From positions 57,237,684 to 57,291,787 of the forward strand of contig NC_057726.1 of the NCBI RefSeq assembly GCF_004010195.1: a stretch of DNA of 54,104 nt, in the 5' to 3' direction. This document shows positions 1,096 through 54,094 of this stretch, piece after piece. Every line of letters begins with the position of its first letter. Position 1 is the first letter of the stretch. Source of the DNA: Chiloscyllium plagiosum. Its lineage: Eukaryota. The notes under the pieces are model-generated. The model saw only the letters and a program-made list of their open reading frames with translations. It had not been told where the DNA came from and did no database searches. Both the position numbers and the translations under genes were made by a program.

Positions 1096-1352
1096 TGTGA
1101 GGCAATTGGAAGGTTTGAGGATTCCCCTCCTCCTCCTCCTCCCCTTACAAACAATCTCCTCAAAGTTTGCTGCATCTGGCTCCACAAGGAGCAAATTCCC
1201 TTCCCATCTCTGCACAGGCTTGTTCACTGAGACTTTGCACTTGAGCATCTCTCCCCTCATCACCCCACTGAGTGCAACAGTCTCACCATCATCATCACCC
1301 TTACATCTTGTAACCCACTCCCACTATCACCCAACAAGAGACATAGGACACT

Positions 1353-2510
1353 ATGGCATTCCCCATGGGCATTCCTCTCTACACAATTATTGTGGAAGAT
1401 GAGGAGGAGGAGGAGCAGCAGCGAATGGAGGCCAAGAGGATACGGCAGCATGGCAAAAGACATCACCCAACCAGGTACTATCCACCTCAGCGTATCTACA
1501 GGCAACGCAGGTCCTTTGAGGACCTGTCGGAGGATCTCTGCATTCGGAGGGTGCGATTATCTAAGGGTGCCATTGCCAATCTGTGTGAACTCCTTCGTGA
1601 AGATCTTCAGCCGCACTCCACTGCCAGGACAGCCTTGTCTGTTGAAATGAAAGTGACCACCGCTCTGAATTTTTTTGGCACTGGATCCTTTCAAGGCGCC
1701 ACAGGGAACATGTGCAATATCAGCCAAGGAGCGGTGAGGGCAGCTATTCAACAGGTCACGGATGTGCTCTTTAACAGAGCTCCAGGATTCATCAACTTTG
1801 GCATCACGCCGAGGCAACAGAGGGAACGAGCGAAGGAATTCTGTTACATTGCGGGATTTCCCAAAGTTCAAGGTGCCATAGGTGGCACCCATGTAGCACT
1901 GAAGGCACCAGCAGAACAGCCACTTATATTTGTGAATAGGAAAGGATTCCACTCATTAAATGTTCAAATTGTCTGCGATGCTCACCAGAAGATCCTGTAT
2001 GTAAATGCTAAGCATGCAGGAAGCTGTCATGATGCTGTAATTGTACAGCACTCAACTCTCCCTGACCTCTTCCATGAAGATAACCACGTTCAAGGATGGC
2101 TTCTTGGAGACCAGGCATACGCATTGCAAACGTGGCTCATGCCTCCACTCAGCCAACCGAAAACCCAGGCCGAGGAAGCGTACAACAAAGCACAGGCAGC
2201 AACGCGGGCTGTGGTGGAGAGGACCATAAGACTGTTAAAAAGCAGGTTTCGTTGCCTGGATAGATCCAGTGGAGCTCTGCAATACACACCCCAAAGGGTG
2301 GCACGAATTGTCATAGCATGCTGCGTGCTGCACAATTTTGCGCTGCAGGAAGGCCACCTATTTAACATAGATGATGAGGAGCCACTGCTGCCTGAGGAAA
2401 GGGAGTTGCAGGCCCCCCCGTTTGAGGAGGATGAACAGTTGGAGGATTCATCTCTGATTGCTGCGAGGGCCATCCAAAATCAGATTGTGCAGGAAGAGTT
2501 CAGCCATTGA
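1353..2510 (+). CDS. Harbinger/PIF transposase-derived nuclease (HARBI1-like, DDE_Tnp_4 family), intronless, 385 aa; first catalytic Asp replaced by Gly
   Basis: Uninterrupted ORF with Kozak ACTATGG. Harbinger motifs: ALSVEMKVTTALNFFGTGSFQ (HTH region), FPKVQGAIGGTHV, FVNRKGFHSLNVQIVCD, GSCHD, WLLGDQAY, RAVVERTIRLLKSRFRCLD, CCVLHNF. AATAAA at 2726-2731. The N-terminus does not resemble canonical HARBI1, so no symbol is given. Confidence 0.9.
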   Translation: MAFPMGIPLYTIIVEDEEEEEQQRMEAKRIRQHGKRHHPTRYYPPQRIYRQRRSFEDLSEDLCIRRVRLSKGAIANLCELLREDLQPHSTARTALSVEMKVTTALNFFGTGSFQGATGNMCNISQGAVRAAIQQVTDVLFNRAPGFINFGITPRQQRERAKEFCYIAGFPKVQGAIGGTHVALKAPAEQPLIFVNRKGFHSLNVQIVCDAHQKILYVNAKHAGSCHDAVIVQHSTLPDLFHEDNHVQGWLLGDQAYALQTWLMPPLSQPKTQAEEAYNKAQAATRAVVERTIRLLKSRFRCLDRSSGALQYTPQRVARIVIACCVLHNFALQEGHLFNIDDEEPLLPEERELQAPPFEEDEQLEDSSLIAARAIQNQIVQEEFSH

Positions 2511-13400: not shown

Positions 13401-15856
13401 AATACTCTGGAGAAAGTGACTAAGGCTTCTTTGACAGTACTTTCCAAAGCCACAACATTTACCATCAAGAAGAAATAGAGCAGATGCACTGGAATACTGG
13501 CCATTTGCAAGGTCCCCGACACTCACTAGTTGATTCACTCTCCTATTGTCCTACCATTGCAGCATATTGTAATAACTGTTGATGCTTTCTCTGTCTGGGA
13601 GTAAGCAATTATGTAGTTTTGTATCTCAAGTCTCTTTTTAACAATAGCACAGTTCACTAAATCTAAACCTGGCAAGGATTACTAAACTAAAATTTTATCC
13701 CCAGTTTGTCTTCAGGCTGTCCTATCCTTTTGATCTTTCATTACTTTTTGGGAACTTTAAGATAGTCTGGAGCCACCTTTTTTAAAAATGTTTTTATTGA
13801 GAATTTTTTTCTTTACAAAATTATAAAATTACAAAAGTATAACAATTTAAAATTATAACAACAACTACAAGGAACTATCTATCTACTACCTTACTCTACA
13901 AAACAAATGAAAACTACACTCACTACAAATCTACCAATAAATAATGCCACTCAGCACAACCACACTGAGGCTCCCAACCTTCAGGAACATTAATTGTTAC
14001 ACCCGTATTTATTTGGGATTCTTCCTCCCAGGGCACAAGGCTCACTAAACCTAACCATCATGGCTAAACAAATGCCCTAATTAAAATGGCAGACAAGTCT
14101 GCCTCCAGGTAATTCAAAAAGGGTTGCCACGTCTTATGAAAAAGTTCCATTTTATGGTGCACTATGTTTGTGAGGAAATCCAAAGGGGGACGTTCCACAA
14201 TTAACTTGTGCCATCCCAACAGGCCCTGAGGGTTCTCAGACACCCAGCTCATCAAAATATTCTTCCTCGCACAATGTTAAATAGCTTCTTCCCATGTGCG
14301 TCTAAGGAAGATAAATTCTGCAGATACAAGAGCAGAGAGACCAGGTCTACTTTAACTTCTGTCCCCAGGACCCTCTCTATTACTCCTGCCACAATACTTC
14401 AGTACCTACAAAGCTTGTGGCAAGGCCACAAACAATGAGTGAGGGTACCTACGCTTACTTTGCACTTGGGGCATATTGGAGATGCTCCCTTTTTGAATTT
14501 CGCAAGACAATCTCGTGCCAAATGAACCCGATGAAGAACATTCAATTGCAGAGTGTGTGTTCTGTTACAGATCGAGATCTTTCTCGCATTCTCCCAAATG
14601 TCCTCCCATGTCTCTGAGGGAATCTCCACTCCCAACTCTTGCTCCCAGACCTTACATAGTCACTCAGTGTTGCTCAAGGCACCGCACCCTTGTAGATAGT
14701 AAAGAGTACTAAACGAGAGAGTGCTTGTGGCATGAAGCACTCTCCTCTCTGTGTTGGACCTATAGGGGTTGGTCAAAAGTGTAGTCTTTCTTTGGATGAA
14801 GTCCCTAACCTGAAAGTAATGTGGAAGATCTCTGCTGGGCAATCCATACTTGCAGCTCATTTGGTCGAAGGACATTGTGACCTCCCCCTCAAACAGATCT
14901 CCCAAACAGGAGACTCCCCTCATTCCCCATAGTTTGAATCCAGGGTCCATCATCCCTGGCCAGAATCCCAGCGTACCAACTATAGGGCTAAGAAAGGAGC
15001 TTTGAGATAAACTGCCCTCACTCTTGTCGCATTGCTCTCCATGCTTTGACCATATTAATATTGATTGGATTCTGACAGTATTCCATAACTGTCCTCATAT
15101 TATCCATAAACAACAAACTAGTAAGGGGGCACTTTGTTTGAGTGGCCTCGATATCCAACCATATTGATCTTGGGTCTTCACAAGCCCAATCGCTCACAAA
15201 GGTCAGAAGGGAGCTTAGTTGGTATCTCTTAATATCCGGAAAGTCTACGCCCCTCCCACCAACCCTTTGAGTAACTGCAATTTGGCCAGTTTAATGCAGG
15301 GCCGCCTGTGACGCCAAATAAAAGAACTAAACCAACCAGTGAGACTCCACATTTGACTGGGAAACATCAGAGGGAGCATTCACATACGATATAAAAGATA
15401 AGGAAGGACATTCATTTTGATAAGAATTGAGAGTGTGGTGCTGGAAAAGCACAGCAGGTCAGGCAGCATCCAAGGAGCAAGAGAATCAACGTTTCGGGAA
15501 AAAGCTCTTCATGAGGAATGAGTCCATCAGCACGTAGTCCTGGACCTTGGGGAATGTGCCGGTCTGCAATACTTGGTCGAGGTCAGCTCTGCGCCTGGAA
15601 GATCAAAAAGCGTCTTTCACGGAGTTGATGGTCCCAGGCGCAGTCAGTGCTTGTCTCAGTGTGCACCCCAGGGAACAGACCATAGGGTACAGAGTCCTGT
15701 GTCATGAAGCTGCTCAAGACAAACCTTGACAAAAAACACTGCATCACTCTCTAGACATTCTTCACAAAGGCAGGACCATCACTAACCTAACCATGTATGT
15801 TTGTGCACATGTCTGTTCTCTTGTATTTACGGAAATTTGACTTGTCGTGGTGTTTG

Positions 15857-16182
15857 ATTAGATTAGATTACTTACATTAGATTAGATTAGATTAGATTAG
15901 ATTAGATTAGATTGATTAGATTAGATTAGATTAGATTACTTACAGTGTGGAAACAGGCCCTTCGGCCCAACAAGTCCACACTGACCCGCCGAAGCGCAAC
16001 CCACCCATACCCCTACCCCTACATTTACCCCTTTAACCTAACACTATGGGCAATTTAGCGTGGCCAATTCACCTGACCCTGCACATCTTTGGACTGTGGG
16101 AGGAAACTGGAGCACCCGGAGGAAACCCATGCAGACACGGGGAGAACGTGCATACTCCACACAGTCAGTCGCCTGAGTCGGG
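15857..16182 (-). mobile_element. HE1 V-SINE with expanded (ATTAG)n tail
   Basis: Reverse-complement HE1 body; (attag)n microsatellite at 15857-15935. Confidence 0.9.
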
Positions 16183-16232
16183 ATCAAGCATAGGTTTTCA
16201 ACAAGTTACGAGATTGATGTGCTTATGTTCAA

Positions 16233-16463
16233 CTGGGCGAAACTGACGACTGCAGATGCTGGAGATTCGAGTCGAGAGTGTGGTGCTGGAAAAGCACAGC
16301 CGGTCAGGCAACACGCGAGGAGCAGGAAAATTAACGTTTCGGAAGGGCTTTTACTCGAAACGTTGATTCTCCTGCTCCTCGGATGCTGCCTGACCAGCTG
16401 TGCTTTTCCAGCACCACACTCTTGACTCGAATCTTCAGCATCTGCAGTCCTCACTTTCACCTA
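16233..16463. repeat. Fold-back (inverted repeat) Penelope-derived element, family B
   Basis: ~100-bp arms ctgcagatgctggagattcgagtcgagagtgtggtgctggaaaagcacagc... and ...gctgtgcttttccagcaccacactcttgactcgaatcttcagcatctgcag are near-perfect reverse complements. Confidence 0.85.
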
Positions 16464-17194
16464 ATTCATTTTGATAAGGGCTACTCGACCTAACCAGGAG
16501 ATTGAAAGGGCCTCACATCTTTGAAGATCTTGTCTAATCTTGTCATGCCAATGAGCAAAATTGGCCATGAATAAATGATCAAAGGTGGGAGGAACAAAAA
16601 TACCTAAATAAAGAAAAACCCCTGCGACCATTTAAAGGGGAATCATAATTCACCTTTCAGATCAGGTATTCCCTTCAGACTTCCCACGGGCATAGCCTCT
16701 GATTTTGCTAGATTGATCTTATATCCGGAAATAGAGTCAAATAAATTAATACATTGTATTAAATGGGGTACAGAAACTGCCGGGTTTGATAAGAGGAGGA
16801 GATCTTATGAGCCCTTGATCCCACTTCCGGGGCAGCTATGTTAGGGGTCCTTACAGATCGCCTCTGCCAGCTGCTCAATCACCATTGTAAACAGTAGCGG
16901 TGAGAGGGGACAACCTTGCTGACTGCCCCTACCAATTCTGAAATTATTGGATCTTTCACCATTGGTGAGAACCGCAGCCAGTGGATCATGATACAGGACC
17001 TCCACCCATCTGAGAAAAACATCACCTCAACCAAACTGTTCCAGAGTATAAAAAAGATATGGCCACTTCACCCGTTCAAATGCCTTCTCTGCATCCAAAG
17101 AGATCACCAAACCCTGACCTGATCGTTGCTGACACATAATTAGCAATCTTCTAATATTATTAGAGGACCTACGGGCCTTTATAAAACCCGTCTG

Positions 17195-17708
17195 ACCCGG
17201 TACGGAGGAAGGAGGGCAGGTCTGAAGATCTCCTCGTGGTTCTGCTCCTGGGCCTGGCCAAACTGGCCATCAACAGGTCCAGGCAGCGGGCCGTGGAGGG
17301 GGTCGTTAGGGCCGACTGCCTGCCCCTCTTCCGCGGTTATGTTAGAGCCCGGGTGTCCTTGGAGAAGGAGCACGCGGTGTCCACCAACACCCTGGAGTTG
17401 TTCAGGGAGAGGTGGGCGCCGCAGGGAGTGGAGTGCATCATTTCTCCCTCCAACTCTATTTTGATTTAGTCCCTACCCTCCCCTTCACTGTTTTGATCAC
17501 ACAGCACTGTCCTTTGATGTGAAGGGCAGCGCTTGTCACTGGCCACCCGGGTGTTTTCCTATCTTCCTGGTGGTGGAAATTGAATAAAGATTGGTGCACT
17601 TTGTGTCTTTCACTGTGTCTCACACCTGCACACACACACCATGGGTGCTGGGGATAAAATAAGCACTACCGCACTTAGGTGGTAGTGTGGGGGTTAAAAG
17701 AAAAAAAA
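17195..17708 (+). mobile_element. 5'-truncated Tx1/L1-like LINE 3' end inserted antisense in the L1
   Basis: ORF2 C-terminus (LGLAKLAINRSRQRAV...FRERWAPQGVEC...*), AATAAA, poly(A) at 17701-17709, and 14-bp TSD ataaaacc(c/t)gtctg at 17181-17194 / 17709-17722. Confidence 0.85.
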
Positions 17709-19762
17709 ATAAAACCTGTCTGGTTTTCCTTAACAATATGGGGCAACACATTCTCCAATGTCTTGGATAAAATTTTAAAATCCGAATTTAATAGCGAAAT
17801 GGGCCTATACAAAGCATAGGGTCTTCCCTTTCTTGAGGACGAGAGAGATGTTCGCTTCTCTCAGGGATGGCGGGAAGCAGTCATGACTGTTCGAATAGTT
17901 GGACATGTCCAGCATCAGCCCTGACAGGATTTTAATAAATTCTTTGTGGAATTCACTCAGGAGACCATCGGGGCCAGGCGCCTTCCTACTTTGGAGTTGT
18001 CTTACTGCCTCCTGTATCTCTGCACTGTCAAGGGGGCGTTAAGAAGAAACATCTGTTCTGAGGTCATACCTGGAAGGTCCAGGTTCTTATAAAAAGATTC
18101 TACCTTAGCCCACCAATCCTGCAGCATTCCGACCGATATAGCTCAGAGAAAAAACTCTGAAATATTTCATTGATCCTTTCAGAGTCACACATAAGAAATC
18201 CAGTGCCTTCTCTAAATTGACGTAATGGATTGGGTGGGGGAGGCGTTCTTTTTCTAGGCCAGATATGCCAGGTATTTGCCTGGCCTAACGCCATGCTCAA
18301 ACAGCCTTTGTTTTGCAAAGGAGAGTTCTCTCTTCGCTGTCTGAGTGAGTGTGGAGTTCAAAGCAACCAAGAGGGCTGCGACTTGCTGCAATTTAGTCAT
18401 TGACGGCCTGTCAAAATATACTGTCTCGACTGCCTTCAAACGGGCCCCAAGCAGATGTTGCTGCTTTCCCTTCTGCCTATTCTGGCTAGCCGAATAAGAG
18501 ATAACTCTCCCCCTAGCATAAGCCTTCGCAGTCTCCCAGAGTATAGACAGGTTGCTAGCCGTACCCAAATTCATAGCGAAGAACGCTTTGACCTCACTTG
18601 AGAAGTACTCGACAAACTTACTGTCCTTGAGTTTATAAGGATCCATCCGCCAATACCAGGAACCTAGTCCGCTGCCCTTAATTTCAACCTTCAAGTACAT
18701 TGCTGCATGATCGAACATGGATATGTTTCCAATTTTTCAGGACATCACTAAAACCAGAAAAACGGAAGATGCTTAAGAAAGGTCAATCCTTGTCCGAATT
18801 AGTGAGAAAGGTGAAGTCCCTACCTGTAGGGTGGAGACATCTCCAAATGTCTACCAACCTCAATTCCACGCATAGGTCAACCAATTGCGTGGATTGCGGA
18901 GAGACATTTGGGGGACGTTTGGGCATTCTATCCTCTGTGGGATCCATGAGGTGATTAAAATCTCCCCCATGATACTGTGTCACGTTCCGAGGGCAATCAA
19001 CATAGAAAGTGCATCAGTCAGGAATGTGAGGGGGTGTGCCAGGGGAGAATAAACGTTTAGAATGCCATATTCTTCACCAAGTATTAACGCTTTAAGGATT
19101 ACAAACCACCCATATTTCATCTTTAGCTTGATCTAATAACTTAAATGGGAGACTCTTCTGGATAAGTATGGCCACTCCTCTCCTCTTAGTGTTAAAGGAT
19201 GAAGAAAACACCCGATCAAACCAATCTTGTTGTAACTTTAGATGCTCCTTATCATTAAGATGGGTTTCTTGCAACAGGGCAATATCAACCCTCTCCTTTC
19301 TGAGACACAAAAGTACTTCTTTACTCTTAACTGGCGAGTGACTCCTTAATATTCCAGGTGCAACATTTAAGAGGACACTTAGCCATATCCCTCGATAACA
19401 ACTCTTAAACCCCTGAGAGGAAGACCCCAACAAACTAAACCAATTACAGCATACAAAAAACACTTGGTCAGAGACTCTCCCCTGCCCACAGCGGGTGCTT
19501 ATACTACTTGCATACACATCCATAACTCCTTCTAGCTTGAGCCACACCCAAACTCAGGCGAACGATAAACAACATAAATAGGTATTATAAACAGAAAAAT
19601 TAAAAGTGGGCACTTCACTCATCCACAAACCTCAATTATCACTGTTAAAAAAACAATACTTTCTGTAATAAAATAATAGAGAAAAAGAATTACACAAAGT
19701 AGAGAGAGAAAAAGGAAAAGAAAAGAGAACCATTATTGTCTATGGTCTTTGGACCATCCAGT

Positions 19763-21189: not shown

Positions 21190-21371
21190 GGATTTCAAGG
21201 TATTTTTCAATGTATAATTTCAGTTACATCACACTGTAAACTTTTGCTATAAATTCTATGCCATACAATTGTGCCCTCCACAATCACCTGATGAAGGAGC
21301 GATGCTCCAAAAACTAGTGTGCTTCCAATTAAACCTGTTGGACTATAACCTGGTGTTGTGTGGTTTTTAAC
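21190..21371 (+). mobile_element. Penelope-associated family A element with decayed hammerhead motif
   Basis: cacCTGATGAaggagcgatgctccAAAAacTAgtg at 21285-21319 (GAAA mutated), followed by the family A tail aaacctgttggactataacctggtgttgtg. Confidence 0.75.
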
Positions 21372-25694: not shown

Positions 25695-26270
25695 AGATTA
25701 GATCCCCTACATTGTCGAAACAGGCCCTTTGGCCCAACAAGTCCACACCGACCCTCCGAACAGCAACCGACCCAGACCCATTCCCCTACACATAGACCTG
25801 GACCCAATATACTGGCCACTACAGCGGACAGCTGAAACTGACAACCGGAAGCAGCAGGGACAGGCCACTATAAATGCCGGAGGAAACACCACAGAAGCGC
25901 TTCACAGGAGGCTCCCAAGCACTGAGGATGTCACCTACACAGGGGACGAAACGTTTGCAACAAAAACTTCCAGCTCGGCGAATAGAACCACAGCAACGAG
26001 CACCCGAGCTACAAATCTTCTCACAAACTTTGAATCCCCTACATTCACCCCTGACTAATGCACCTAACACCACGGGCAATTTAACATGGCCAATTCACCT
26101 AACCTGCACATGTATGGACTGTGGGAGGAAACCAGAGCACCCAAAGGAAACACACACAGACACGGAGAGAATGTGCAAACTCCACACAGACAGTTGCCTG
26201 AGGCAGGAATTGAATCCAGGTCCCTGGTGCTGTAAGGCAGCAGTGCTAACCACTGAGCCACCGTGCCGCC
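25695..26270 (-). mobile_element. HE1 V-SINE split by a Penelope insertion
   Basis: HE1 halves at 25695-25790 and 26035-26270 rejoin at the tcccctaca duplication. Confidence 0.85.
25791..26034 (+). mobile_element. Penelope-like element 3' end / pLTR (family C) with hammerhead motif
   Basis: 9-bp TSD tcccctaca (25782-25790, 26035-26043). HIDLDPIY resembles the PLE ORF C-terminus. Hammerhead gcaCTGAGGAtgtcacctacacaggggacGAAAcgTTtgc at 25919-25958. Confidence 0.75.
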
Positions 26271-39400: not shown

Positions 39401-40763
39401 TGCTGTTGACATTAATCATAAGAAACTTACAATAGCACCTTGTCATACCTCTTTGCCTAAAGAAATGTATTAATATTAGCATGCAAAAATAAGTCAAACA
39501 CTTCAGTTTTAAACAAACCTAGTCTCTTGGCCAAACGACTGAATTAAAGAGACTCTTGCTGACTCTGCTTTCCGTGTTGGTTTTTTTAAACACCACTTTC
39601 CTTTTTGAGAGCTTTCTCCAAGTTCTCAAGCTATTAGCATAATTATTTTCTAAACAATCCTGTGACTTTTTTGAAATAAGTAAAATTATTCCAGTTTCAT
39701 AGAGCAAAAAAAGCCCATCCACTTGTAGATCTTTCAAAGAAACCTATTAACAAAACCATTTTTGGACAAATGTACATAGTTTTTTGCTGCACAGTATCAG
39801 AATCGCTTAGTTTAATGTGAAAGTAAATCTCAAAAGAAGCCTGAATTTCGGGAGCAGCTGCAAGGTCTCCACTATTCTTAATCTCATTTTCCAAAATTTG
39901 GCTTGTGGCGTTTGAAGTGCTCTTCTAATTGAGGATTAACTAAAGGTTCTGAACTCTACCCTGAAGCAGTGAATTCCAGATAACCACCCTCCAACTGAAA
40001 AGGTTTCCTCCAATCTAACCATGTTTTGAGAATTTAAAGCTGACATCTTGGAGGAAACTTTCCTCACCTACCCTGACCATGCCACAATGTTTACACAATC
40101 TGAGCCCACCCCAAAGTCATGACTAGAGCTCCCCATCTATCCAGTCTCATGGCTGATTCACTGCAACTCCTACCACTTTCCTGATCACTCCTCTGCCCTT
40201 TATAGGGTCTTGTAATTGCACTACTGTGGTAACCAGAACAGTAACAGCATTCTACTGTAGTCCAGCTTACATTTAATCTTCACAACCAATAATACTTTGA
40301 CCAATAAAAGCAAACACTCCAATATGTTGTCTTAACCATAGTTTTCATCTACCTGTGGTTGCCTGAAGGGTTTATGGGTATGCTCTCTGGTTCTCTTGAC
40401 TTCCTATAGTCATGTGCCAATATGGCTTCACTTTTAAATCTCCTTTCCTACAAATTCAATGGAGATGGTCTGTCTGACCAAAAGCAGCAAACTTCAATGC
40501 GATATTGAGGGAAGAATTATCAGCAAAGCTGACCTGTAGAGCATGAGTTGCTATTCATTCAGCTTCACTGCAGCAAGCTGATTGAGCAAAGAGCTAAAGC
40601 TGAAACAAAAAAAACCTTGCTGGAGAAAATCGGCAGGTCTGGCAGCATGGATGGAGAGGAAAGTGGAGTTAACACAAAGTCCGGTGACTCCTTCAGAACT
40701 GTTTGAAGGTGGTTTATTAAAATGGCAAGTGACTGAGTCACTCACCTAATATTAAAAAAAAGT

Positions 40764-40950
40764 CATGATTTGGAGATGCCGGTGTTGGACTGGTGCGTAC
40801 AAAGTTAAAAATCACACAACACCAGGTTATTGTCCATGGTAATTAAACTTGTTGGACTATCACCTGATGAAGGAGCGGTGCTCCGAAAGCTAGTGTGCTT
40901 CCAATTAAACCTGTTGGACCATAACCTGGTGTTGTGATTTTTAACTTTTT
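40764..40950. mobile_element. Family A fold-back element with intact hammerhead motif
   Basis: Inverted arms aaagttaaaaatcacacaacaccaggttat / ataacctggtgttgtgatttttaacttt enclose the hammerhead at 40861-40895. Confidence 0.8.
40861..40895 (+). ncRNA. Minimal type I hammerhead ribozyme motif
   Basis: cac CTGATGA a ggagc ggt gctcc GAAA gc TA gtg: complete core, 5-bp stem II, palindromic AGCU stem III, cac/gtg stem I. Confidence 0.75.
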
Positions 40951-41980
40951 AAAAAAATGTCTTTTGTAAAGATTGCCCTAAGTTTGCATTTGGGTTGTCT
41001 GTTTGTGCTGTTAATGAGCTGAGGTGACTGCTGAGCACCTATTCAAGCACTTGAATCCAACTTAATGATTAACTTTGTATAGTTCACTTTTGGTATTTCT
41101 GTCCCTTCAACTAAGTGATTCTGATACTGTTTTATATTTTCCTTTGTTACTGGTAACCATTTTTTGAAAATTTTCTGAATAGTAAGTTCCTATTACTTCA
41201 TCTGACTAAAACCTTAACACGTTCCACTACACTTGTTACTATAGATGTTGCCAGGACCTTTTTTTTTCCCCCCCCCAGCCCTTGTTTCACATGAGTAATT
41301 GGTCAGGATTGGGAATACATCCTGTAAACATTCAACAGGGCATTCTATAAATTGAATATATGGAGACATAATTACAGGGAGATGGGAGAAGAACAGGATT
41401 CAAATTATCTCGAAGAGCTGAGCTTGGAGGTTCCCTCTTCAGCTTTTGTGTAGCTGTATTCTGTTGAGTAACTTTTAATATCTTTTTAGTGGAAGTTTTC
41501 GGAATTTGTTGACAATTCTTGTACGAACTAGTGAAGGCTGAATGTCAACTGTCTTTATTTCTTTCCCCAGTTTTCAGTTAGATGGGCATTGCTCTGAAAC
41601 TACTTAACCCAATGTCTTACACCATTGATCAAGGTCCCTTTTTAAGGTTGCAAGATTTTTTGTTCACTCCAGGGCCATGGGCCTGTTCCTTGTTGTTCCC
41701 AAAACGTCAATTCTCCTGCTCCTTGGATGCTGCCTGACCTACTGCGCTTTTCCAGCAACTCATTTTTCATTCCTGAAGGTGGTAAGCTGCCACCTTTTGA
41801 ATAGTTGCAGTTCACTGCCAAGTGATCTGTCTGGTTTCATTTCTTTGAAACTTTGTAGTGGCATAGAGACATACAGATGTGTGGCATGGAAACAGACCCT
41901 TCAGTCCAATTTGTCCATGCATACTAGGTATCTTAAATTAATCTAGTCCCATTTGCCAATACTTGGCCCATATCCCTCTA

Positions 41981-42356
41981 GAGCCAATATCAGAATGGTG
42001 CTGGAAAAGCATAGCAAGTCAGGCAGCATCCGAGGAGCAGGAAAATTAACATTTTCGGGCAAAAGCCCTTCATCACGAAAGAGGCTGGAAGCCTCTGGGC
42101 TGGAGAGATAAATGGGCTGGGGGAAGGTAGCTGAGTGTGGGTGGAGTAGATACGTATGAAGGAAGATTGACAGGTGAGATAGGTCATGAGGATGGTGCTG
42201 AGCTGCAAGGTTGGAACTGAAGTAAGGTGGGGGGGTGGGGGGGGGGGAGGGCACATAAGGTGGAGGAGGCCCAGGACCTGGATGTCCTCAGCAGAGGGGA
42301 AGTTGAAATGTTCGGCCACGGGGCGTTGAGTTTGATTGTTGTGGATGTCCTCTGAG
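41981..42356 (-). mobile_element. Penelope-like element 3' fragment (GIY-YIG C-terminus + family B pLTR)
   Basis: PVAEHFNFPSAEDIQVLGLLH resembles the PLE endonuclease C-terminus. Decayed hammerhead at ~42048-42080; 8-bp TSD tccctcta (41973, 42357). Confidence 0.75.
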
Positions 42357-43519
42357 TCCCTCTAAACCCTTGTTACAATGGAGTGGTTTGCTCGGCTATT
42401 TCAATGGGCAGCTGAGAGACTCCTAGAACATTACAGCGCAGTACAGGCCCTTCGGCCCTTGATGTTGCGCCGACCTGTCATACTAATCTGAAGCCCATCT
42501 AACCTACACTATTCCATGTAAGTCCATATGCTTGTCCAATGATGACTTAAATGTACATAAAGTTGGCGAATCTACTACCATTGTAGGCAAAGCATTCCAT
42601 ACCCTTACTACTCCTGAGTAAAGAAACTACCTCTGACATCTGTTTAAAGTAGCCCCCTTGTGTTCGCCGTCACCATTCTTGGAAAAAGGCTCTCCCTGTC
42701 CAACCTATCTAACCCTCTGATTAAGTCACCTCTCAACCTTCTTCTCTCAAATGAAAACAGCCTCAAGTCCCTCAGCCTTTCCTCGTAAGATCTTCTCTTC
42801 ATACCAGGCAACATCCTAGTAAATCTCCCCGGCACCCTTTTCAAATCCTTCTTAAAATGCAGTGACCAGAACTGTACACATTACTCCAAGTGCGGCCACA
42901 CCAGAGTTTTGTACAGCTGTAACATAACCTCATGGTTCTGGACCTCGATCCCTCTATTAATAAAAGCTAAAACACTGTATGCCTTCTTAACAACCCTGTC
43001 AACCTGGGTGGCAACTTTCAAGGATCTGTGTACCTGGACACCGAGATCTCTCTGCTCATCTACACTATCAAGAATCTTACAGTTAGTCCAGTACTTTGCA
43101 TTCCAGTTGCTCCGACCAAAGTGAATCACCTCACACTTGTCCGCATTAAACTCCATTTGCCACCTCTCAGCTCAGCTCTGCAGCTTATCCATGTCTCTCT
43201 CTAGCCTACGACATCCTTCGTCACTATCCACGACTCCACCGACCTTAGTGTCGTCTGCAAATTTATTAACCCACCCTTCTATGCTCTCATCCAGGTCGTT
43301 TATAAAAATGAACAGCAGTGGACCCAACACCGACCCTTGCGGTACACCACCGGTAACTGGATTCCAGGATGAACATTTCCCATCAACCACCACCCTCTGT
43401 CGTCTTTCAGCAAGCCAATTACTGACCCAAACTGCTCTATCTCCCACAATCTCATTCTTCCACATTTTGTACAATAGTCTACTGTGGGGAACCTTATCGA
43501 ATGCCTTGCTGAAATCCAT

Positions 43520-43890
43520 GCAGGTAGTGAAGAAGGCTAATAGTATGCTGGCCTTCATAACAAAAGGGATTCAGTATAGAAGCAAAGATATCCTTCTGCA
43601 GCTGTACAGGGCCCTGGTGAGGCCACACCTCGAATATTGTGTGCAGTTCTGGTCTCCAAATTTGAGGAAAGACATTCTAGCTATTGAGGGAGTGCAGCGT
43701 AGGTTCACAAGGTCAATTCCTGGAATGGCGGGACTACCTTACGCTCAAAGACTGGAGCGACTGGACTTGTATACCCTTGAGTTTAGAAGACTGAGAGGGG
43801 ATCTGATTGAGACATATAAGATTATGAAAGGATTGACAATCTGGAGGCAGGAAACACGTTTCCGCTGATGGGTGAGTGCCGAACCAGAGG
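43520..43890 (+). mobile_element. Opposite-strand CR1 fragment of a different subfamily
   Basis: [12 protein letters not shown]...LVRPHLEYCVQFWSP...RRLRGDLIETYKI on the + strand; runs into the gap. Confidence 0.8.
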
Positions 43891-44799
43891 NNNNNNNNNN
43901 NNNNNNNNNNNNNNNNNNNNNNNNNNNNNNNNNNNNNNNNNNNNNNNNNNNNNNNNNNNNNNNNNNNNNNNNNNNNNNNNNNNNNNNNNNNNNNNNNNNN
44001 NNNNNNNNNNNNNNNNNNNNNNNNNNNNNNNNNNNNNNNNNNNNNNNNNNNNNNNNNNNNNNNNNNNNNNNNNNNNNNNNNNNNNNNNNNNNNNNNNNNN
44101 NNNNNNNNNNNNNNNNNNNNNNNNNNNNNNNNNNNNNNNNNNNNNNNNNNNNNNNNNNNNNNNNNNNNNNNNNNNNNNNNNNNNNNNNNNNNNNNNNNNN
44201 NNNNNNNNNNNNNNNNNNNNNNNNNNNNNNNNNNNNNNNNNNNNNNNNNNNNNNNNNNNNNNNNNNNNNNNNNNNNNNNNNNNNNNNNNNNNNNNNNNNN
44301 NNNNNNNNNNNNNNNNNNNNNNNNNNNNNNNNNNNNNNNNNNNNNNNNNNNNNNNNNNNNNNNNNNNNNNNNNNNNNNNNNNNNNNNNNNNNNNNNNNNN
44401 NNNNNNNNNNNNNNNNNNNNNNNNNNNNNNNNNNNNNNNNNNNNNNNNNNNNNNNNNNNNNNNNNNNNNNNNNNNNNNNNNNNNNNNNNNNNNNNNNNNN
44501 NNNNNNNNNNNNNNNNNNNNNNNNNNNNNNNNNNNNNNNNNNNNNNNNNNNNNNNNNNNNNNNNNNNNNNNNNNNNNNNNNNNNNNNNNNNNNNNNNNNN
44601 NNNNNNNNNNNNNNNNNNNNNNNNNNNNNNNNNNNNNNNNNNNNNNNNNNNNNNNNNNNNNNNNNNNNNNNNNNNNNNNNNNNNNNNNNNNNNNNNNNNN
44701 NNNNNNNNNNNNNNNNNNNNNNNNNNNNNNNNNNNNNNNNNNNNNNNNNNNNNNNNNNNNNNNNNNNNNNNNNNNNNNNNNNNNNNNNNNNNNNNNNNT
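43891..44799. other. Assembly gap (N run)
   Basis: Contiguous Ns. Confidence 1.
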
Positions 44800-46091
44800 A
44801 TCTCAGTATTCTCCTCGACAACATTGTCGTTTTCTCGAGTGAATACTGTTGAAAAATATTCATTTAGTGCTTCCCCTGTCTCCTCTGACTCCACACAACT
44901 TCCCACTACTATCCTTGATTGGCCCTAATCTTACTCTTGTCATTCTTTTATTCCTTATATACCTATAGAAAGCCTTAGGGTTTACCCTGATCCTATCCAC
45001 CAACAACTTTTCATGTCTCCTCCTGGCTCTTCTGAGCTCTCTCTTTATGTATTTCCTGGCTACCTTGTAACCCTCAAGCGCCCTACCTGAGCCTTCACAT
45101 CTCATCCTAACATAAGCCGCCTTCTTCCTCTTGACCAGAGATTCCACTTCCTTTGTAAACCACGGCTCCTGCGCTATACAGCTTCCTCCCTGCCTGACAG
45201 GTACATACTTATCGAGGACACAGGAGCTTTTCCTTGAATAAGCTCCACATTTCTAATGTGCCTATCCCCTGTAGTTTCCTTCCCCATCCTATGCTTCCTA
45301 AATCTTGCATAATTGCATCGTAATTTCCTTTTCCCCCAGCTGTAACTCTTGCCCAGTGGTATACACCTATCCCTTTCTATCACTAAAGTAAACTTAACTG
45401 AATTGTGATCGCTATCACCAAAGTGCTCACCTACTTCCAAGTCTAACACCTGGCCGGGCTCATTACCCAGTAGCAAATCTAATGTGGCTTCGCCCCCTTG
45501 TTGGCCTGTCTGCATACTGTGTCAGGAAGTCCTCTGCACACACTGGACAAAAACTGACCCATCTATAGTACTCATACTATAGTGTTCCCAGTCAATATGT
45601 GGGAAGTTAAAGTCGCCCATGACAACTACCCTGTCTCTCTCACTTCTATCGAGAATTATCTTTGCTATCCTTTCCTCTACATCTCTGGAACTATTTGGAG
45701 GCCTATAGAAAACTCCCACCAGGGTAACCTCTCCTTTTCTGTTTCTAACCTCAGCCCATACTACCTCAGTTGACAAGTCCCCAAACATCCTTTCTGTAAC
45801 TGTAATACTGTCCTTTGCCAACAATGCCAACCACCCCCCCCCTTACCATCTTCTCTGTTCTTATTGAACCATCTAAATCCTGGAACCTGCAGCAACCATT
45901 CCTGTCCCTGCTCTAACCATGTCTCCGAAATGGCCACCACATCAAAGTCCCAGGTACCAACCCACGCTGCAAGTTCACCCACCTTTATTCCAGTGCTCCT
46001 GGCGTTGAAGTAGACGCACTTGCTTGCCGGTGCCATCTTGCATCTCTGAAACTTGATTTTGGACCTCCCTACTCTCAACCTTTTTTTTTTT

Positions 46092-46272: not shown

Positions 46273-48178
46273 TTGCTCCGACCAAAGTGAATCACCTCAC
46301 ACTTGACCATCCTGCTTGTAGAGGTCCCACCTACCCCAGAAAGAGCCCCAATTATCCAAGAATCCAAAACCCTCCCTCCTGCACCATCCCTGTAGCCACG
46401 AGTTCAACTCCTCTCCCTATTCCCCACCTCACTAGCATGTGGCACGGGCAACAAACCAGAGACAACAACTCTGTTCATCCTAGCTCTAAGCTTCCATCCT
46501 CGTTCCCTGAATTTCTGTCTTAAATCCCCATCTCTCTTCCTATCTATGTCGTTGGTGCCAATGTGAACCACAATTGGGGGCTGCTCCCCCTCCCCATTAA
46601 GGATCCCAAAAACACGATCAGAGACATCACGAACCCTGGCACCTGGGAGGCAACACACCAACCATGAGTCTCTTCGTCCCCACAGAACCTCCTATCTGTC
46701 CCCCTAACTATGGAGTCCTCAATGACTACTGTTTTGCTCCTCTCCCCCTTTCCCTTCCAAGCAGCAGGGACAGACTCTGTGCCAGAGCCCTGTGCCCCAC
46801 TGCTTTCCCTTGGTAAGTCGTTCCCCCCCCCCCCAAACGGTGTACTTATTGTTGAGGGGAATGGTCACAAGGGATCCCTGCGTTGCCTGTCGGTTCCCTT
46901 TACGTCCCCTGACAGTAACCCATCTGCCTTTTTCTTGCACCTTAGGAGTGACTACCTCCCTGTAACTCCTCTCTAACCCCCTCTGCCTCCTGCATGCTCT
47001 GAAGTTCATCCAGCTCCAGTTCTCTAACAGGGATTTTGAGGAGCTGGAGTTGGGTGCCCGCCCTGGAGATGTAGTCAGCAGGAACACTAGTGGTGACCCT
47101 TACCTCCCACATTCTGCACGAGGAACATTCAACTGCCCTAACCTCCATTCCTACTATTCTAAATTCCCAAAGAGACTGTTGAAAAAATAAGGAATAAAAA
47201 ATAAACGCGTTACCTTATCAATGTGGCGCACAGAACCTTTTATTTTGGGTTGAGGAGGTTGGGTGGGAGACACTACCCAAGTAGTGTTTCGGGTAACGTA
47301 ACCACACAAATATGTGACTTCCCAGAAGTCCTTCGCTCCTCGAGTTATCATGCACACCAGACCAGGTGAGCATGGCAGCTCTTCTTACCTGAAGGGCATT
47401 AGTGTGCCAGATGGGATTTTCCTGACCATCAGCAAAGGTTTCATGCTCATCAATAAATATCAAGAATTAAGAGCCAAGTGAAATCAAATCACACCATCTG
47501 CTCTAGTGCGAATCAAACCCAGGTCCCTGGAACCTTAACTGAGTTTCTGGGCAAATAGCTCAGCACTAGTACCTCTAGACCGTCACCTCAGTATTCGAGA
47601 AGTCTGACACCATCGAAAATAAAACTGCATGCATGGCACTACCTTCAACATTCACGACTGCTACCATGGTAGAAGTGTGTGCCATTGACAACATAGAGTC
47701 ATAGAAAAATACAGCACAGAACCTGATCCTTCAGCCTATGGAGTTGGTATCAGCTTTTGTTGAAAAAACAACTCTCCTCCTCCTTTTGACCTGCTGTCCT
47801 TTTCCAGTACCACACTCTCAACTCTAATCTCCAGCATTTGCAGTCCTCGCTTTCGACCAGTCAAAAGCAACTGCCTAACTGTCCCAATTAGAGGCTAAAT
47901 GCTGACAGATGGGACTAGATTAGTTTTGGGCAAGTTGGAGTGGAGGATCTGTTTCCAAGCTGTATGATTTCCTCCACGTGGAGCAGACTCGGACTTGAGC
48001 CGAAGGGACGGAGAGTTTGCTGTTGCACTGGTGGTTACTGCCAGCGTTGACTTTGGCGGGTGAACGGTTGATTTCAAAATCGCCACAACTTGGAGATGCC
48101 AGTGTTGGACTGGGGTAGGCAAAGTTTAACAAAAAACCACACAACACCAGGTTATAGTCCAACAGGTTCATTTGGAAG

Positions 48179-48213
48179 CACTAGCTTTCGGAGCGACGCT
48201 CCTTCATCAGGTG
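48179..48213 (-). ncRNA. Minimal hammerhead ribozyme motif
   Basis: Reverse complement reads cacCTGATGAaggagcgtcgctccGAAAgcTAgtg. Confidence 0.75.
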
Positions 48214-48331
48214 GTTATGGAGCAACAGAATTTACAGCAAAAGGTTGAAAGTGTGATGTAACTTCGGTGTATAATTTTAGTTATGATTTGGAGATGCCGG
48301 TGTTGGACTGGGGTGTACACCTGGGGTCCAT

Positions 48332-48366
48332 TACCTGATGAAGGAGCGTCGCTCCGAAAGCTAGTG
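48332..48366 (+). ncRNA. Minimal hammerhead ribozyme motif
   Basis: tacCTGATGAaggagcgtcgctccGAAAgcTAgtg. Confidence 0.75.
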
Positions 48367-48484
48367 TGCTTCCAATTAAACCTGTTGGACTATAACCTGG
48401 TGTTGTGTGATTCTTAACTTTAGTTACATCACACTGTAAACGTTTGCTATAAATTCTGTGTTTTATGATTTTAGACTTCACAAC

Positions 48485-48519
48485 CACCTGATGAAGGAGC
48501 AGCGCTCCGAAAGCTAGTG
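48485..48519 (+). ncRNA. Minimal hammerhead ribozyme motif
   Basis: cacCTGATGAaggagcagcgctccGAAAgcTAgtg. Confidence 0.75.
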
Positions 48520-48897
48520 CTTCCAAATCAACCTGTTGGACTATAACCTGGTGTTGGGTGTTTTTTTTTTAAAACAAAAATCAAAATCCTGAGATTTGCA
48601 TTTTTAACTTTGTCCACCCCAGTCCAACACCGGCCCCTCCAAATGCTGAGATTTGTAGGTCGGTTGAAACTCCCAGCCACCAGCCTGAGCAGCACAGTTT
48701 GGGGGGGGGTTTGTGACTGAGCTGGTTACGGAAGAGTTGCTCAACGCCCTTGAGGAAAGCAGCACTGTCGGAGCCTAGACTCTCAGGGAGGGAGGGACTT
48801 CAAAACTGAAACCTCCAAGGTGAAGTGAGCAGCTCGGCCGGCTGGGGGAGGCTTCCTTGCAGCACAGCAGCGGCGGGACAGTCTGAATGCTGCGGTC

Positions 48898-49106
48898 ATG
48901 GAGAGCACGTTTGGAAAGCAGCATTCTCCCGGGAGGGCTGAGGGACGGCTGAAGGAGAGCCCGGCAGGTCACTTCACTTCCATCGCGCCGAGGGACTTAG
49001 GGCAACGGTGCTGCATCGCCTACGGGGGCTTCGGGAAGGTTTACAAAGTCTGGCACCGCTCCTGGGGGATCTGGGTCGCAGTCAAGTTGCTCAGACTGAA
49101 CGGGAG
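48898..49106 (+). CDS. ripk3: Receptor-interacting Ser/Thr kinase (RIPK3-like), coding exon 1
   Basis: IAYGGFGKVYKVWHRSWGIWVAVKLL is the RIPK Gly-loop plus VAVK lysine. Kozak GTCATGG; donor AG|GTAAGG, phase 2. RIPK3 versus RIPK4/ANKK1 assignment is tentative. Confidence 0.8.
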
Positions 49107-50167
49107 GTAAGGAACCATTCTCTGTCACAGGGGCGTGGGCAGATCAGCGACTGGTTTACTGTAACTATGATTTCCATTAGTTCCCATTAGCGACCGTCCT
49201 GGTGAGGAAGTTGCTCACTGGTCACTTTTACACCTTCAAGAGACTTTCCACTCATCACTGTACAGCCCCACTGCGGCTGGTGAACGGATATCCAGCCGGA
49301 ATCTACTGACCAACACGCAACAGTTTCCACGAGATCTTTGCACAGAAAGTTTCATCGTCGCGCAGACGCCATTAAACTAGTTTGGAATTTCAGATGTCTT
49401 ATTGAATGCAATGCAGATTTTGCCATTTAGAATGATAGAGATGGACAACATACAAACAACTCATACTATTTCCGTACAACTGGTCCATACCGACCAGAAA
49501 TCCGCAATTAATTCGAGTCCCATTTGCTAGTATTTGGCCCATATCTCTCTAAACCCTTCCTATTCATATACCCACCCCAGATGCCTTTTAAATGTTGTAA
49601 TTGTACCAGCCTCCACCACTTCCTCTGGTAGCACCTTCCATACACCTGTGTAAAAATGTCACTTTGAAATCTTTCCCCTCTCACTTTAATATTACCCTGA
49701 GAAAAAGACCTTGGTTACTCATCTTATCAACCTCCCACCGTGATGCTATAAACTTCTATAAGGTCACCCCTCAGCCTCCTACCCTTCAGGGAAAATAGCC
49801 CCCTGTCTAATCTAGACCCTGCCTATTCAGTTTCTCCCTTTAGCTCAAACCCTCCAGCCCTATCAACATCCCAGTAAATCTTTTCTAACCCTTTCAAGTT
49901 TGAACCAAACGTCCAGAGACTTAGCTCAGTCTAATGGCCAACCTCGATTACTAGCGCAGTGACACTAGTACTGCATCCTCTCTGGTCATCCGGGTGAATT
50001 GGACTGGCAACTGTCGAACTTCCTGCAGCACTTTCTCCTCTGATTTGAAATTTCCAGCATCTGCGCCATTTTGCTTTTATTAGACAACTGGGTATCTTCT
50101 TAACCACACAGGACCACCGAATTAGTATGGTACGGAAGGAGGCCATTTGGCCCATCATGTGAGGTTT

Positions 50168-50257
50168 TGGCAGTACTGGGATTTAAACCAATAACTCAAT
50201 TGAGACTGGAGTTTTAAAAACCAAATCTAGCACCTTAGATCTTTCAGACATGTCACC
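50168..50257 (-). pseudogene. Degenerate tRNA-Leu-like pseudogene
   Basis: Reverse complement ggtgacatgtctgaaagatctaaggtgctagatt...ctccagtctc...ggtttaaatcccagtactgcca aligns by eye to tRNA-Leu (GGTCTAAGGCGCTGGATT..CTCCAGTCTC..GGTTCGAATCCCACCGCTGCCA). Confidence 0.6.
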
Positions 50258-50337
50258 ACAGATCAGTATCACACAGTACAGGATCTAAACATTTAGAATA
50301 ATGAATTTGATGTCAAATCAGGCACGTAAAGCAAAAT

Positions 50338-50810
50338 AAACCTTGAAAGGGTTCAGAAAAGATTTACAAGGATGTTGCCAGGGTTGGAGGATTTGAGCTA
50401 AGAGGAGAGTTTGAATAGGCTGGGGCTGTTTTCCCTGTAGTGTTGGACAGTGAGGGATGACCTTGTAGAGGTTTATAAAATTATGAGGGGCATGGATAGG
50501 ATAAATAGACAAAGTCTTTTCCCTGGGGTGGGGGATTCAGAACTAGAGGGCATAGGTTTAGGGTGAGAGGGGAAAGATATAAAAGAGACCTAAGGGGCAA
50601 CTTTTTCACACAGAGGGAATGGGCTGCCAGAGGAACTGGTGGAGGCTGGTACAACTGCAACATTTAAGAGGCATTTGGATGGGTATATGAAAAGGAAGGG
50701 TTTGGAGGGATATGGGCCGGGTGCTGGCAGGTGGGACTAGATTGGGTTGGGATATCTGGTCGGCTTGGAGCAAAGGATCTGTTTCCATGCTGTACATCTC
50801 TATGACTCTC
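50338..50810 (+). mobile_element. CR1/HER1 3' end
   Basis: LERVQKRFTRMLPGLE remnant and tail ctgtttccatgctgtacatctctatgactct. An opposite-strand copy lies at ~49430-49900. Confidence 0.8.
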
Positions 50811-51533: not shown

Positions 51534-51733
51534 TGGGCGAGAGTGAGGGCTGCAGATGCTGCAGATCAAGTCGAGGGTGAGGTGCTGGAAAAGCACAGCA
51601 GGTCAGGCAGCATCCGAGGAGCAGTAGAGTCAACATTTCAGGCAAAAACCCATTCCTGATGAAGGGCTTTTACCCGAAACGTCAACTATCCTGCTCCTCG
51701 GATGCTGCCTGACCTGCTGCACCACACTCTCGA
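51534..51733. mobile_element. Family B fold-back element with hammerhead motif
   Basis: Inverted arms; ttcCTGATGAagggcttttacccGAAAcgTC at 51653-51683; 15-bp TSD cattaacctca(t/c)cat at 51519 and 51734. Confidence 0.8.
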
Positions 51734-53375: not shown

Positions 53376-53431
53376 GTATATGGAGTATATTGTTCTATCA
53401 CCTAAAATGCCAATGTTGATGCCCTCTTTGA

Positions 53432-53916
53432 TTTAAAAAAAATCACACAACACCAAGTTATACTCAAACAGGTTTATTTGATAGTACTGGCTTTTGGAGC
53501 ACTGCTCCTTCATTGGGGAACTAGTGGGGCAGGATCATAGGAGACAGAATTTATAGGAAATGATCAAAGTGTCAGACAGCTGATGCAATCGATTGAACAA
53601 ACGGACATTGCTGTTAAGTCTTTAATCGCTTAGAATGGCGATACAGGTTTCGATTGATTAATGTATAAATCCGAGAATTTCTTTCAATCACAGCCCTGAA
53701 ATAACTTCAGGTTTTATCAGTTTATTAAAAAAGTGATACCTCAGATCATATAATGCATAAAAGATGTAAGGCTAGAGCCTGTCTGTATCTCAAACCTGAG
53801 ACAGACAGGTTCTATTACCAAAGAGGGAATTTATAAAATCTCACATGGACTGACAACCTACAGATTGGGTGGTTTTTGAATAAAATAGAGAGTATCTGTA
53901 AATACAAATCTGCAAA
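53432..53916 (-). mobile_element. Family A element (decayed hammerhead) with longer internal sequence
   Basis: aaaatcacacaacaccaagttata terminus and degenerate antisense hammerhead at ~53485-53517. The right boundary is uncertain. Confidence 0.55.
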
Positions 53917-54094
53917 NNNNNNNNNNNNNNNNNNNNNNNNNNNNNNNNNNNNNNNNNNNNNNNNNNNNNNNNNNNNNNNNNNNNNNNNNNNNNNNNNNNN
54001 NNNNNNNNNNNNNNNNNNNNNNNNNNNNNNNNNNNNNNNNNNNNNNNNNNNNNNNNNNNNNNNNNNNNNNNNNNNNNNNNNNNNNNNNNNNNNN
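53917..54094. other. Assembly gap (N run)
   Basis: Contiguous Ns. Confidence 1.

Follow-up and report, generated by a model that had tools for sequence, protein, structure and literature searches.

In Penelope-like elements (PLEs), minimal hammerhead ribozymes are distinguished by a base lying between position 9 and position 10.1, a G10.1-C11.1 pair and a palindromic 15.2–16.2. About 4,000 minimal hammerheads are reported for coelacanth and about 9,000 for Xenopus, mostly dispersed and few within full elements; in Schistosoma, pairs also lie on opposite strands, 100–700 bp apart, and dimeric minimal hammerheads cleave at a low but detectable level (PMC4209133). We analyzed a cluster of such motifs at positions 48090–48644 of a 54,104-nucleotide (nt) stretch of the shark Chiloscyllium plagiosum genome (contig NC_057726.1, 57,237,684 to 57,291,787; hereafter the window), just upstream of a RIP-family kinase gene. 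In all likelihood, the cluster is a set of nested, 5′-truncated ends of pseudo-long terminal repeats (pLTRs) from an abundant shark PLE, and it is probably silent.

PLE copies can show 5′ truncation, partial tandems, an adjacent inverted copy and an optional tail of 30–40 bp. Their 8–10-bp duplications are optional in rotifer PLEs, and one Penelope was inserted secondarily into another (PMC8557442, PMC3846280, PMC8969392). Bidirectional promoter motifs may reside in pLTRs (PMC3846280). The purified anole PLE protein nicks AT-rich DNA and extends both strands, reverse transcription beginning at two sites, which define the tail. It is proposed to target its own pLTR besides other sites; the anole hammerhead required protein, and RNA-seq ends at the cut site were not found in the data described (PMC11167929). 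Penelope is listed in the whale shark (PMC8455134), while the excerpt of PMC6155905 added nothing on sharks.

Retrozymes are described as 170–400-nt self-paired circles with canonical hammerheads, minimal ones being assigned to PLEs (PMC7229834). Animal non-LTR retrozymes are proposed to derive from PLE pLTRs; they were reported in the one chondrichthyan surveyed, with a mean consensus of 363 bp, by a pipeline that admits minimal motifs as well, and in vitro cleavage was seen in one of nine predicted Xenopus dimers and in none of the other eight (bioRxiv 10.64898/2026.07.22.740005).

Hammerhead motifs in the cluster

The cluster motif, CUGAUGA-A-GGAGCnnnGCUCC-GAA-AGCU-A, was found in three copies, with C3 at 48335 (+), 48488 (+) and 48210 (−). 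They lie in three pieces of the cluster, A, C and D:

48179..48213 (−): hammerhead of A, minimal type I; C3 at 48210, loop GTC, H17 at 48182
48332..48366 (+): hammerhead of C, minimal type I; C3 at 48335, loop GTC, cut predicted to follow 48363, 3-bp stem I
48485..48519 (+): hammerhead of D, minimal type I; C3 at 48488, loop AGC, cut predicted to follow 48516, 3-bp stem I

All three have the full catalytic core (CUGANGA, GAAA, UH), a stem II of 5 bp with G10.1-C11.1 and a bulged A, a 3-nt loop 2, an open-ended stem I of 3 bp and, as stem III, the loopless palindrome AGCU. The two predicted cuts (H17), after 48363 and 48516, are 153 nt apart, and the hammerhead of A is the only one on the minus strand of the cluster. 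Judged by their sequence, all three belong to the minimal hammerheads of PLE type, whose palindromic stem III should make them workable as dimers only.

The 30-nt hammerhead pattern had five matches in the window at ≤3 mismatches, and none in 100 shuffles. A structure-based census recognized six perfect-core minimal hammerheads, five of them with a stem I of at least 2 bp (four of the cluster family and one other); none of 12 Markov samples contained a perfect minimal hammerhead. Together, the shuffles and the Markov samples exclude a chance origin. Pattern search and census agree with the initial annotation, made from the sequence alone, on three intact minimal type I hammerheads, two direct and 153 nt apart and one antisense, and the AGCU palindrome, bulged A and G10.1-C11.1 pair in all three copies bear out its assignment to the PLE type that needs dimers. 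Rfam at gathering thresholds gave no match across the window, so the curated models do not report such minimal motifs. An exact scan of bacterial and archaeal genomes with the hammerhead pattern also gave no match.

The stem II loops do differ, as first described, but within the cluster they are only GTC (A and C) and AGC (D); GGT is the loop of another copy, at 40864, outside the cluster.

Anatomy of the cluster

The cluster can be resolved into pieces A to E of one repeat family, which also has copies at about 21.2, 40.8 and 53.5 kb of the window:

48090..48263 (−): piece A, inverted, 5′-truncated and pLTR-like, comprising hammerhead, body and a 3′ tail whose end faces left
48268..48283 (+): displaced 5′ start of D, 15/16 identical to what lies upstream, in sense, in the 21.2-kb copy
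48272..48283 (+): left-hand member of the imperfect 12-nt repeat that brackets B and C, 11/12 identical to 48415–48426
48279..48319 (−): piece B, inverted tail-only fragment, 38/41 identical to the inverted tail at 40761–40801
48320..48329 (no strand): unassigned 10-nt stretch between B and C, at their inversion point
48330..48421 (+): piece C, in sense orientation, spanning hammerhead to short, tail-less 3′ end, with two subfamily marks also borne by the 21.2-kb and 40.8-kb copies
48415..48426 (+): right-hand member of that 12-nt repeat, forming the C/D junction from which the 153-nt spacing results
48422..48571 (+): piece D, in sense orientation, with 64 nt of upstream sequence, hammerhead and body, its short end in a T run
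48581..48598 (+): non-family spacer, repeated at 48638–48655 (16/18), the duplication flanking E
48600..48644 (+): piece E, 45-nt fragment of short end and tail, the right “inverted terminus”

Piece A starts about 50 nt upstream of its own hammerhead and extends to the 3′ tail. D, which is tail-less, begins at the identical family position. We read 48268–48283 as the displaced start of D because its match in the 21.2-kb copy lies just upstream of the position at which D starts. With A, this segment forms a head-to-head junction. B and C lie between the two halves of D, inside an AT-rich site, and E is separated from D by non-family DNA. With B, C and E omitted, A and D alone fold as one head-to-head hairpin.

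The inverted arms comprise 48090–48129 and 48603–48642. Inverted termini ending about 250 bp before the kinase ATG had been proposed; the arms exist, and the ATG at 48898 is about 255 nt past 48643, but the termini belong to different pieces, namely the tail of A and E. The repeat around B and C probably combines a target duplication with microhomology. The outer flanks of the cluster share an 8-nt match, which does not abut the ends. The 9 differences between C and D over 83 positions make a duplication by misassembly unlikely, and so does the location of the nearest N runs, one ending at 44798 and the other starting at 53917.

Origin of the 153-nt spacing

The 153-nt spacing is a by-product and not a repeat unit. 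It is composed of 89 nt of C and 64 nt of D. Between the two 153-nt stretches, 77 of the first 89 positions agree, followed by 38/67 (forced global alignment), the similarity ending at about 86–89 nt. Tandem Repeats Finder (TRF) detected no array at score 30 in 47500–49500, and no 153-nt-type array in the whole window with the settings of the published retrozyme pipeline. The two direct copies are therefore not the tandem they had been taken for.

C and D also bear different subfamily marks. A 2-nt insertion in C, with the bases following it, recurs in the 21.2-kb and 40.8-kb copies but is missing from the 53.5-kb copy and from A and D. The identities were 74/83 for C–D, 76/81 for A–D, and 77/83 for C with A, with the 21.2-kb copy and with the 40.8-kb copy. 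The C/D junction occurs once in the window and is absent from all three other loci, its sole further match, with seven mismatches, being ordinary upstream sequence at 21208. The sister copies include tail and upstream sequence that would lie outside a 153-nt circle, suggesting that they were copied from a longer template. The circle itself is not unusually stable, with a circular minimum free energy (MFE) of −26.6 versus −23.8 ± 3.5 in 200 shuffles (z −0.79) and 59% of its bases paired. The missing array, the junction unique in the window, the non-circle sequence in the sister copies and this z-score speak against a retrozyme family with a 153-nt monomer, as the initial annotation had envisaged.

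A dispersed repeat family

A BLAST of the cluster against its own window, to which the family copies discussed here belong, gave three further loci, with matches over 21215–21371, 40761–40957 and 53427–53572:

21211..21371 (+): sister copy, tail-less; hammerhead lost G12 (at 21288)
40761..40948 (both strands): sister locus with inverted tail and sense copy, laid out as B and C; its hammerhead, at 40864, is intact and has loop GGT
53427..53572 (−): sister copy in kinase intron 2, older and decayed; core broken at 3 positions

Including the cluster, there are four family loci per 54 kb, dispersed, 5′-truncated and with common 3′ ends. The copies diverge 5–10% from one another. Family copies have either a short 3′ end or one extended by 39 nt. 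This optional tail is carried by A, B, E and the inverted piece at 40.8 kb, and absent from C, D and the 21.2-kb, 40.8-kb sense and 53.5-kb copies. A head-to-head inverted layout was seen at A/D, at B/C and at the 40.8-kb locus. A partial literature search found no description of this shark repeat family by name.

The copies at 21211, 48263 and 48268/48422 start within about 12 nt of one AT-rich family site, which is also the insertion point of B and C. This site is possibly a nuclease hot spot or the 5′ end of the RNA.

Among the six hammerhead copies compared, stem II was changed at 0 of 60 positions and the loop at 8 of 18, five of these eight changes being of CpG type, either G>A or C>T. 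Four of the six have an intact core; the other two (21288 and the 53.5-kb copy) lost G12 by a CpG-type change. The stem is thus as invariant as first claimed, the core not. An adjacent 26-mer outside the ribozyme was kept about as well, with 0, 0, 0, 0, 1 and 3 changes across the six copies, so the intact hammerheads of the cluster need no selection at the locus. We rejected purifying selection on them as unshown, given this equal conservation of the neighboring sequence. The bias of changes toward the loop is compatible with selection in the source elements.

Predicted folding

In the construct 48320–48540, both stem II hairpins had a probability (P) of ≤0.001, since the arms of C pair with those of D instead. 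When forced, the active dimer lay above the ensemble by 20.1 kcal/mol, by 21.6 with B and E, and by 91.4 in the whole cluster, absolute gaps that are uncalibrated since tertiary contacts are ignored; the evidence lies in the comparisons. With shuffled spacers the gap was 19.9 ± 1.9, and 91 of 150 shuffles were as good as the real spacer or better, so the spacer is not tuned for the dimer. Single hammerheads did form stem II when folded, and were not unusual against shuffles (z −0.8 to −1.5).

In the growing plus-strand chain, the hammerhead of C was paired to A (P 1.0 at end 48370, 0.95 at 48520), and by 48650 that of D was paired to A (P 0.94). On the minus strand, stem II of A had a P of 0.0. 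The whole cluster had an MFE of −293.8 kcal/mol (z −19.5, 30 shuffles); A formed 155 pairs with D/E, and the longest helix without interruption measured 27 bp. As the antisense copy would sequester each hammerhead in turn, double-stranded RNA (dsRNA) of the silencing type is the likelier outcome in read-through RNA than cleavage. Of two expectations raised at the outset, that of long dsRNA from a transcript is a sound prediction from computed folding, should the cluster be transcribed. The cutting of read-through transcripts before the kinase is not, with A predicted to pair with C and then D and the active dimer far above the ensemble.

Comparison with Penelope-like elements and retrozymes

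The family resembles the truncated pLTRs of endonuclease-bearing PLEs (Penelope/Poseidon, Neptune) in its minimal type I core with bulged 9.1, G10.1-C11.1 and palindromic stem III, in its dispersed, 5′-truncated copies with an inverted 5′ copy, a partial tandem and an optional tail, and in its AT-rich targets and nesting into related copies (PMC4209133, PMC8557442, PMC3846280, PMC11167929). Unlike PLEs, the cluster locus has no open reading frame, and three pieces are nested within 555 bp. Stem I has 3 bp and stem II 5 bp here, versus 4–5 and 7–8 bp in the Schistosoma families (PMC4209133).

With metazoan non-LTR retrozymes the cluster shares two near, same-strand type I hammerheads, the lack of a protein and a low GC content (PMC7229834; bioRxiv 10.64898/2026.07.22.740005), and with those of amphibians the dependence on dimers (bioRxiv 10.64898/2026.07.22.740005). 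Unlike the retrozymes described in these sources, it has no head-to-tail unit but inverted copies and tails; the would-be monomer of 153 nt is below 170–400 nt and not highly self-paired, and the hammerhead is minimal instead of canonical (helix I of 3 bp and open-ended versus 6 bp, no loop 1–loop 2 contact). On sequence grounds the family works like a PLE terminal-repeat remnant, and very probably is one.

Assembly of the cluster and alternative explanations

Formation of the cluster from PLE ends probably took three steps. One insertion would have left the head-to-head pair A and D, with a common start position and 3′ ends outward. An inverted pair of the other subfamily, tail B and sense copy C, would then have entered the AT-rich site 64 nt upstream of the hammerhead of D, leaving the imperfect 12-nt repeats, and the 45-nt tail fragment E would have inserted just downstream with its own duplication. 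Both the outward pair and the nesting would follow from a PLE protein that nicks AT-rich DNA, extends both strands and targets its own pLTR, as described or proposed for the anole (PMC11167929). The pLTR would simply carry the hammerheads along. Their probable role in the parent element is to process a tandem precursor RNA as dimers, weakly or aided by protein; those of the cluster are probably silent, and in RNA read through all of it they would be hidden by a long hairpin.

Several points weigh against this PLE reading. The flanking repeats are imperfect (11/12 around B and C, 16/18 around E) and overlap the element's own ends, and a single complex template-jumping event may explain them. 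A and C both have a GTC loop and match each other, in inverted orientation, over 34 nt without a difference (48179–48212/48333–48366), in conflict with the subfamily split, so conversion or homoplasy is needed; conversion inside the palindrome is possible. The hammerheads are intact in all three cluster copies versus one of three elsewhere in the window. Visual inspection of three-frame translations upstream of two sister copies, the 21.2-kb one and, as far as the N gap, the 53.5-kb one, revealed no recognizable reverse transcriptase or GIY-YIG frame. Finally, RNAfold ignores tertiary contacts and penalizes open cores, and the energy gap of the isolated dimer is no proof of inactivity.

Could the C–D pair nevertheless release a circle? 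An accidental proto-retrozyme, in which a promoter at the head-to-head junction yields plus-strand RNA without A, and the C–D dimer cleaves and frees a circularizable 153-nt RNA, is quite unlikely. Both cores and AGCU palindromes are intact and geometrically able to dimerize, pLTRs may hold bidirectional promoter motifs (PMC3846280), dimeric minimal hammerheads do cleave at a low level (PMC4209133), and a pLTR origin is proposed for animal non-LTR retrozymes (bioRxiv 10.64898/2026.07.22.740005). Against this stand the 3-bp stem I, the stem II probability of ≤0.001 in the isolated construct, an active fold 20–22 kcal/mol above the ensemble and no better than with shuffled spacers, and the ordinary stability of the circle (z −0.79); moreover, eight of nine Xenopus dimers were reported without in vitro cleavage (bioRxiv 10.64898/2026.07.22.740005), and the anole hammerhead needed protein, with no RNA-seq ends found there (PMC11167929). 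Very unlikely is the bolder version, that the pair is a snapshot of a retrozyme being born: a PLE entering its own terminal repeat would make a minimal hammerhead dimer in one step, giving a 153-nt circle from a promoter within the repeat and also destroying kinase-gene transcripts initiated in the repeat. If true, a circle-releasing RNA would run toward an elasmobranch-specific death-domain kinase gene. For an established non-autonomous retrozyme family spreading via the 153-nt circle, the probability is lower still. The exact 153-nt cut-to-cut distance would fit it, as would the retrozymes of mean consensus 363 bp in the one chondrichthyan surveyed (bioRxiv 10.64898/2026.07.22.740005), and A, D and the 21.2-kb copy start near one AT-rich site, so that the truncated copies are similar in size. 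Yet TRF gave no array at the published settings, the junction is absent from the three other loci in the window, the sister copies carry tail and upstream sequence, C and D are not duplicates, and PMC7229834 describes retrozymes with canonical type I hammerheads, assigning the minimal ones to PLEs.

We also give very little credence to a co-opted regulator of the kinase gene, in which transcripts running into the promoter would be terminated, cleaved or silenced by the hairpin or by the ribozyme pair. The cluster ends about 255 nt before the ATG, C and D are on the kinase strand, and the hairpin is very stable. However, with four family loci in 54 kb a nearby copy is unsurprising. The hammerheads are conserved no better than the adjacent repeat, and the antisense copy is predicted to block read-through cleavage. 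All four listed isoforms start at the ATG at 48898, and GC, 0.46 ahead of the cluster, reaches 0.59 in the stretch from element to ATG (48645–48900), both compatible with a promoter downstream of the element. Also, the kinase is common to sharks and rays, while the copies are merely 5–10% diverged from each other. The nested PLE ends remain our preferred explanation.

The neighboring kinase gene

Two coding exons of the kinase were identified in the window:

48898..49106 (+): first coding exon of a RIP-family kinase with C-terminal death domain; 69/69 amino acids identical to XP_043563125.1
53064..53375 (+): second coding exon of the same kinase; 100% over 104 amino acids to XP_043563125.1

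XP_043563125.1 is a C. plagiosum protein named RIPK2-like. In the three orthologues scanned, a death domain was found in all (E 1e-14 to 1e-15), with no RHIM match at E up to 1 and no CARD match. The relationships of the kinase are given here as similarity ranks. Among solved structures, exon 1 was best matched by RIPK3, weakly (E 0.001), and exon 2 by RIPK2 (94 bits) and RIPK4 (93) ahead of RIPK3 (73). In the kinase-domain search, considering the best 120 of 417 matches, the top 17 were of the kinase plus death-domain type: 16 were named shark or ray proteins and one was unnamed, and 16 of the 17 had a death domain. RIPK2-CARD, RIPK4 and ANKK1 followed at 41–45%, and no protein named RIPK3 was among these best 120.

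The gene is thus like RIPK3 in being a RIP-family kinase whose exon 1 weakly prefers RIPK3 structures, and unlike it in its C-terminal death domain, the lack of a RHIM match and the preference of exon 2 for RIPK2/RIPK4. The “RIPK3-like” label of the initial annotation is not supported on these grounds, and with a death domain present and a RHIM match absent, the link to necroptosis is unsupported. Among the matches listed, the layout of kinase plus death domain occurs in sharks and rays only, with the kinase closest to RIPK2/RIPK4. No paper on this RIP type was found in a partial literature search.

The region 48655–48830 has GAAA-rich motifs that we take to resemble interferon-factor sites, and may be the kinase's own promoter. 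The promoter scan was of bacterial type and uninformative for shark DNA.

Other features of the window

Altogether, the window contains three families of minimal hammerheads. The second, with an ACGU palindrome, is represented at 51656 (+) and by a decayed copy at about 42070 (−). Upstream of the latter, a 42-amino-acid stretch (42236–42361, −) presumably resembles a GIY-YIG end, a likeness that is unconfirmed and that we do not use as evidence; it had no Pfam family (longer frame) and no homologue, only unnamed Atlas leads. The third type, at 25922 (+), has CUGAGGA-U, a longer stem II, an ACGU palindrome and a stem I of 3 bp.

An intact 387-amino-acid frame of a Harbinger-type DDE transposase (PF13359, E 9e-37) lies at 1347–2510 (+), and is possibly a domesticated HARBI1-like gene or a young transposon. 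Directly before it, the first kilobase of the window is CpG-rich (GC 0.64, CpG observed/expected 0.91). By eye, 14660–19553, 43125–44924 and 49734–50490 contain fragments that look like long interspersed nuclear elements of L1/Tx1 and CR1 type, plus a second inverted-repeat pair in kinase intron 1. N gaps are at 43891–44798 and 53917–54094.

Implications

The neighboring RIP kinase may be more interesting than the repeat, whose kind is well known: thousands of minimal hammerheads are described as PLE remnants in the genomes of fish and amphibians (PMC4209133). The locus would matter more only if both cleavage and circles were demonstrated in vivo. What it offers is a worked example of how self-insertion of PLE ends may make a hammerhead dimer, a step proposed for the origin of retrozymes, and a usable test construct.

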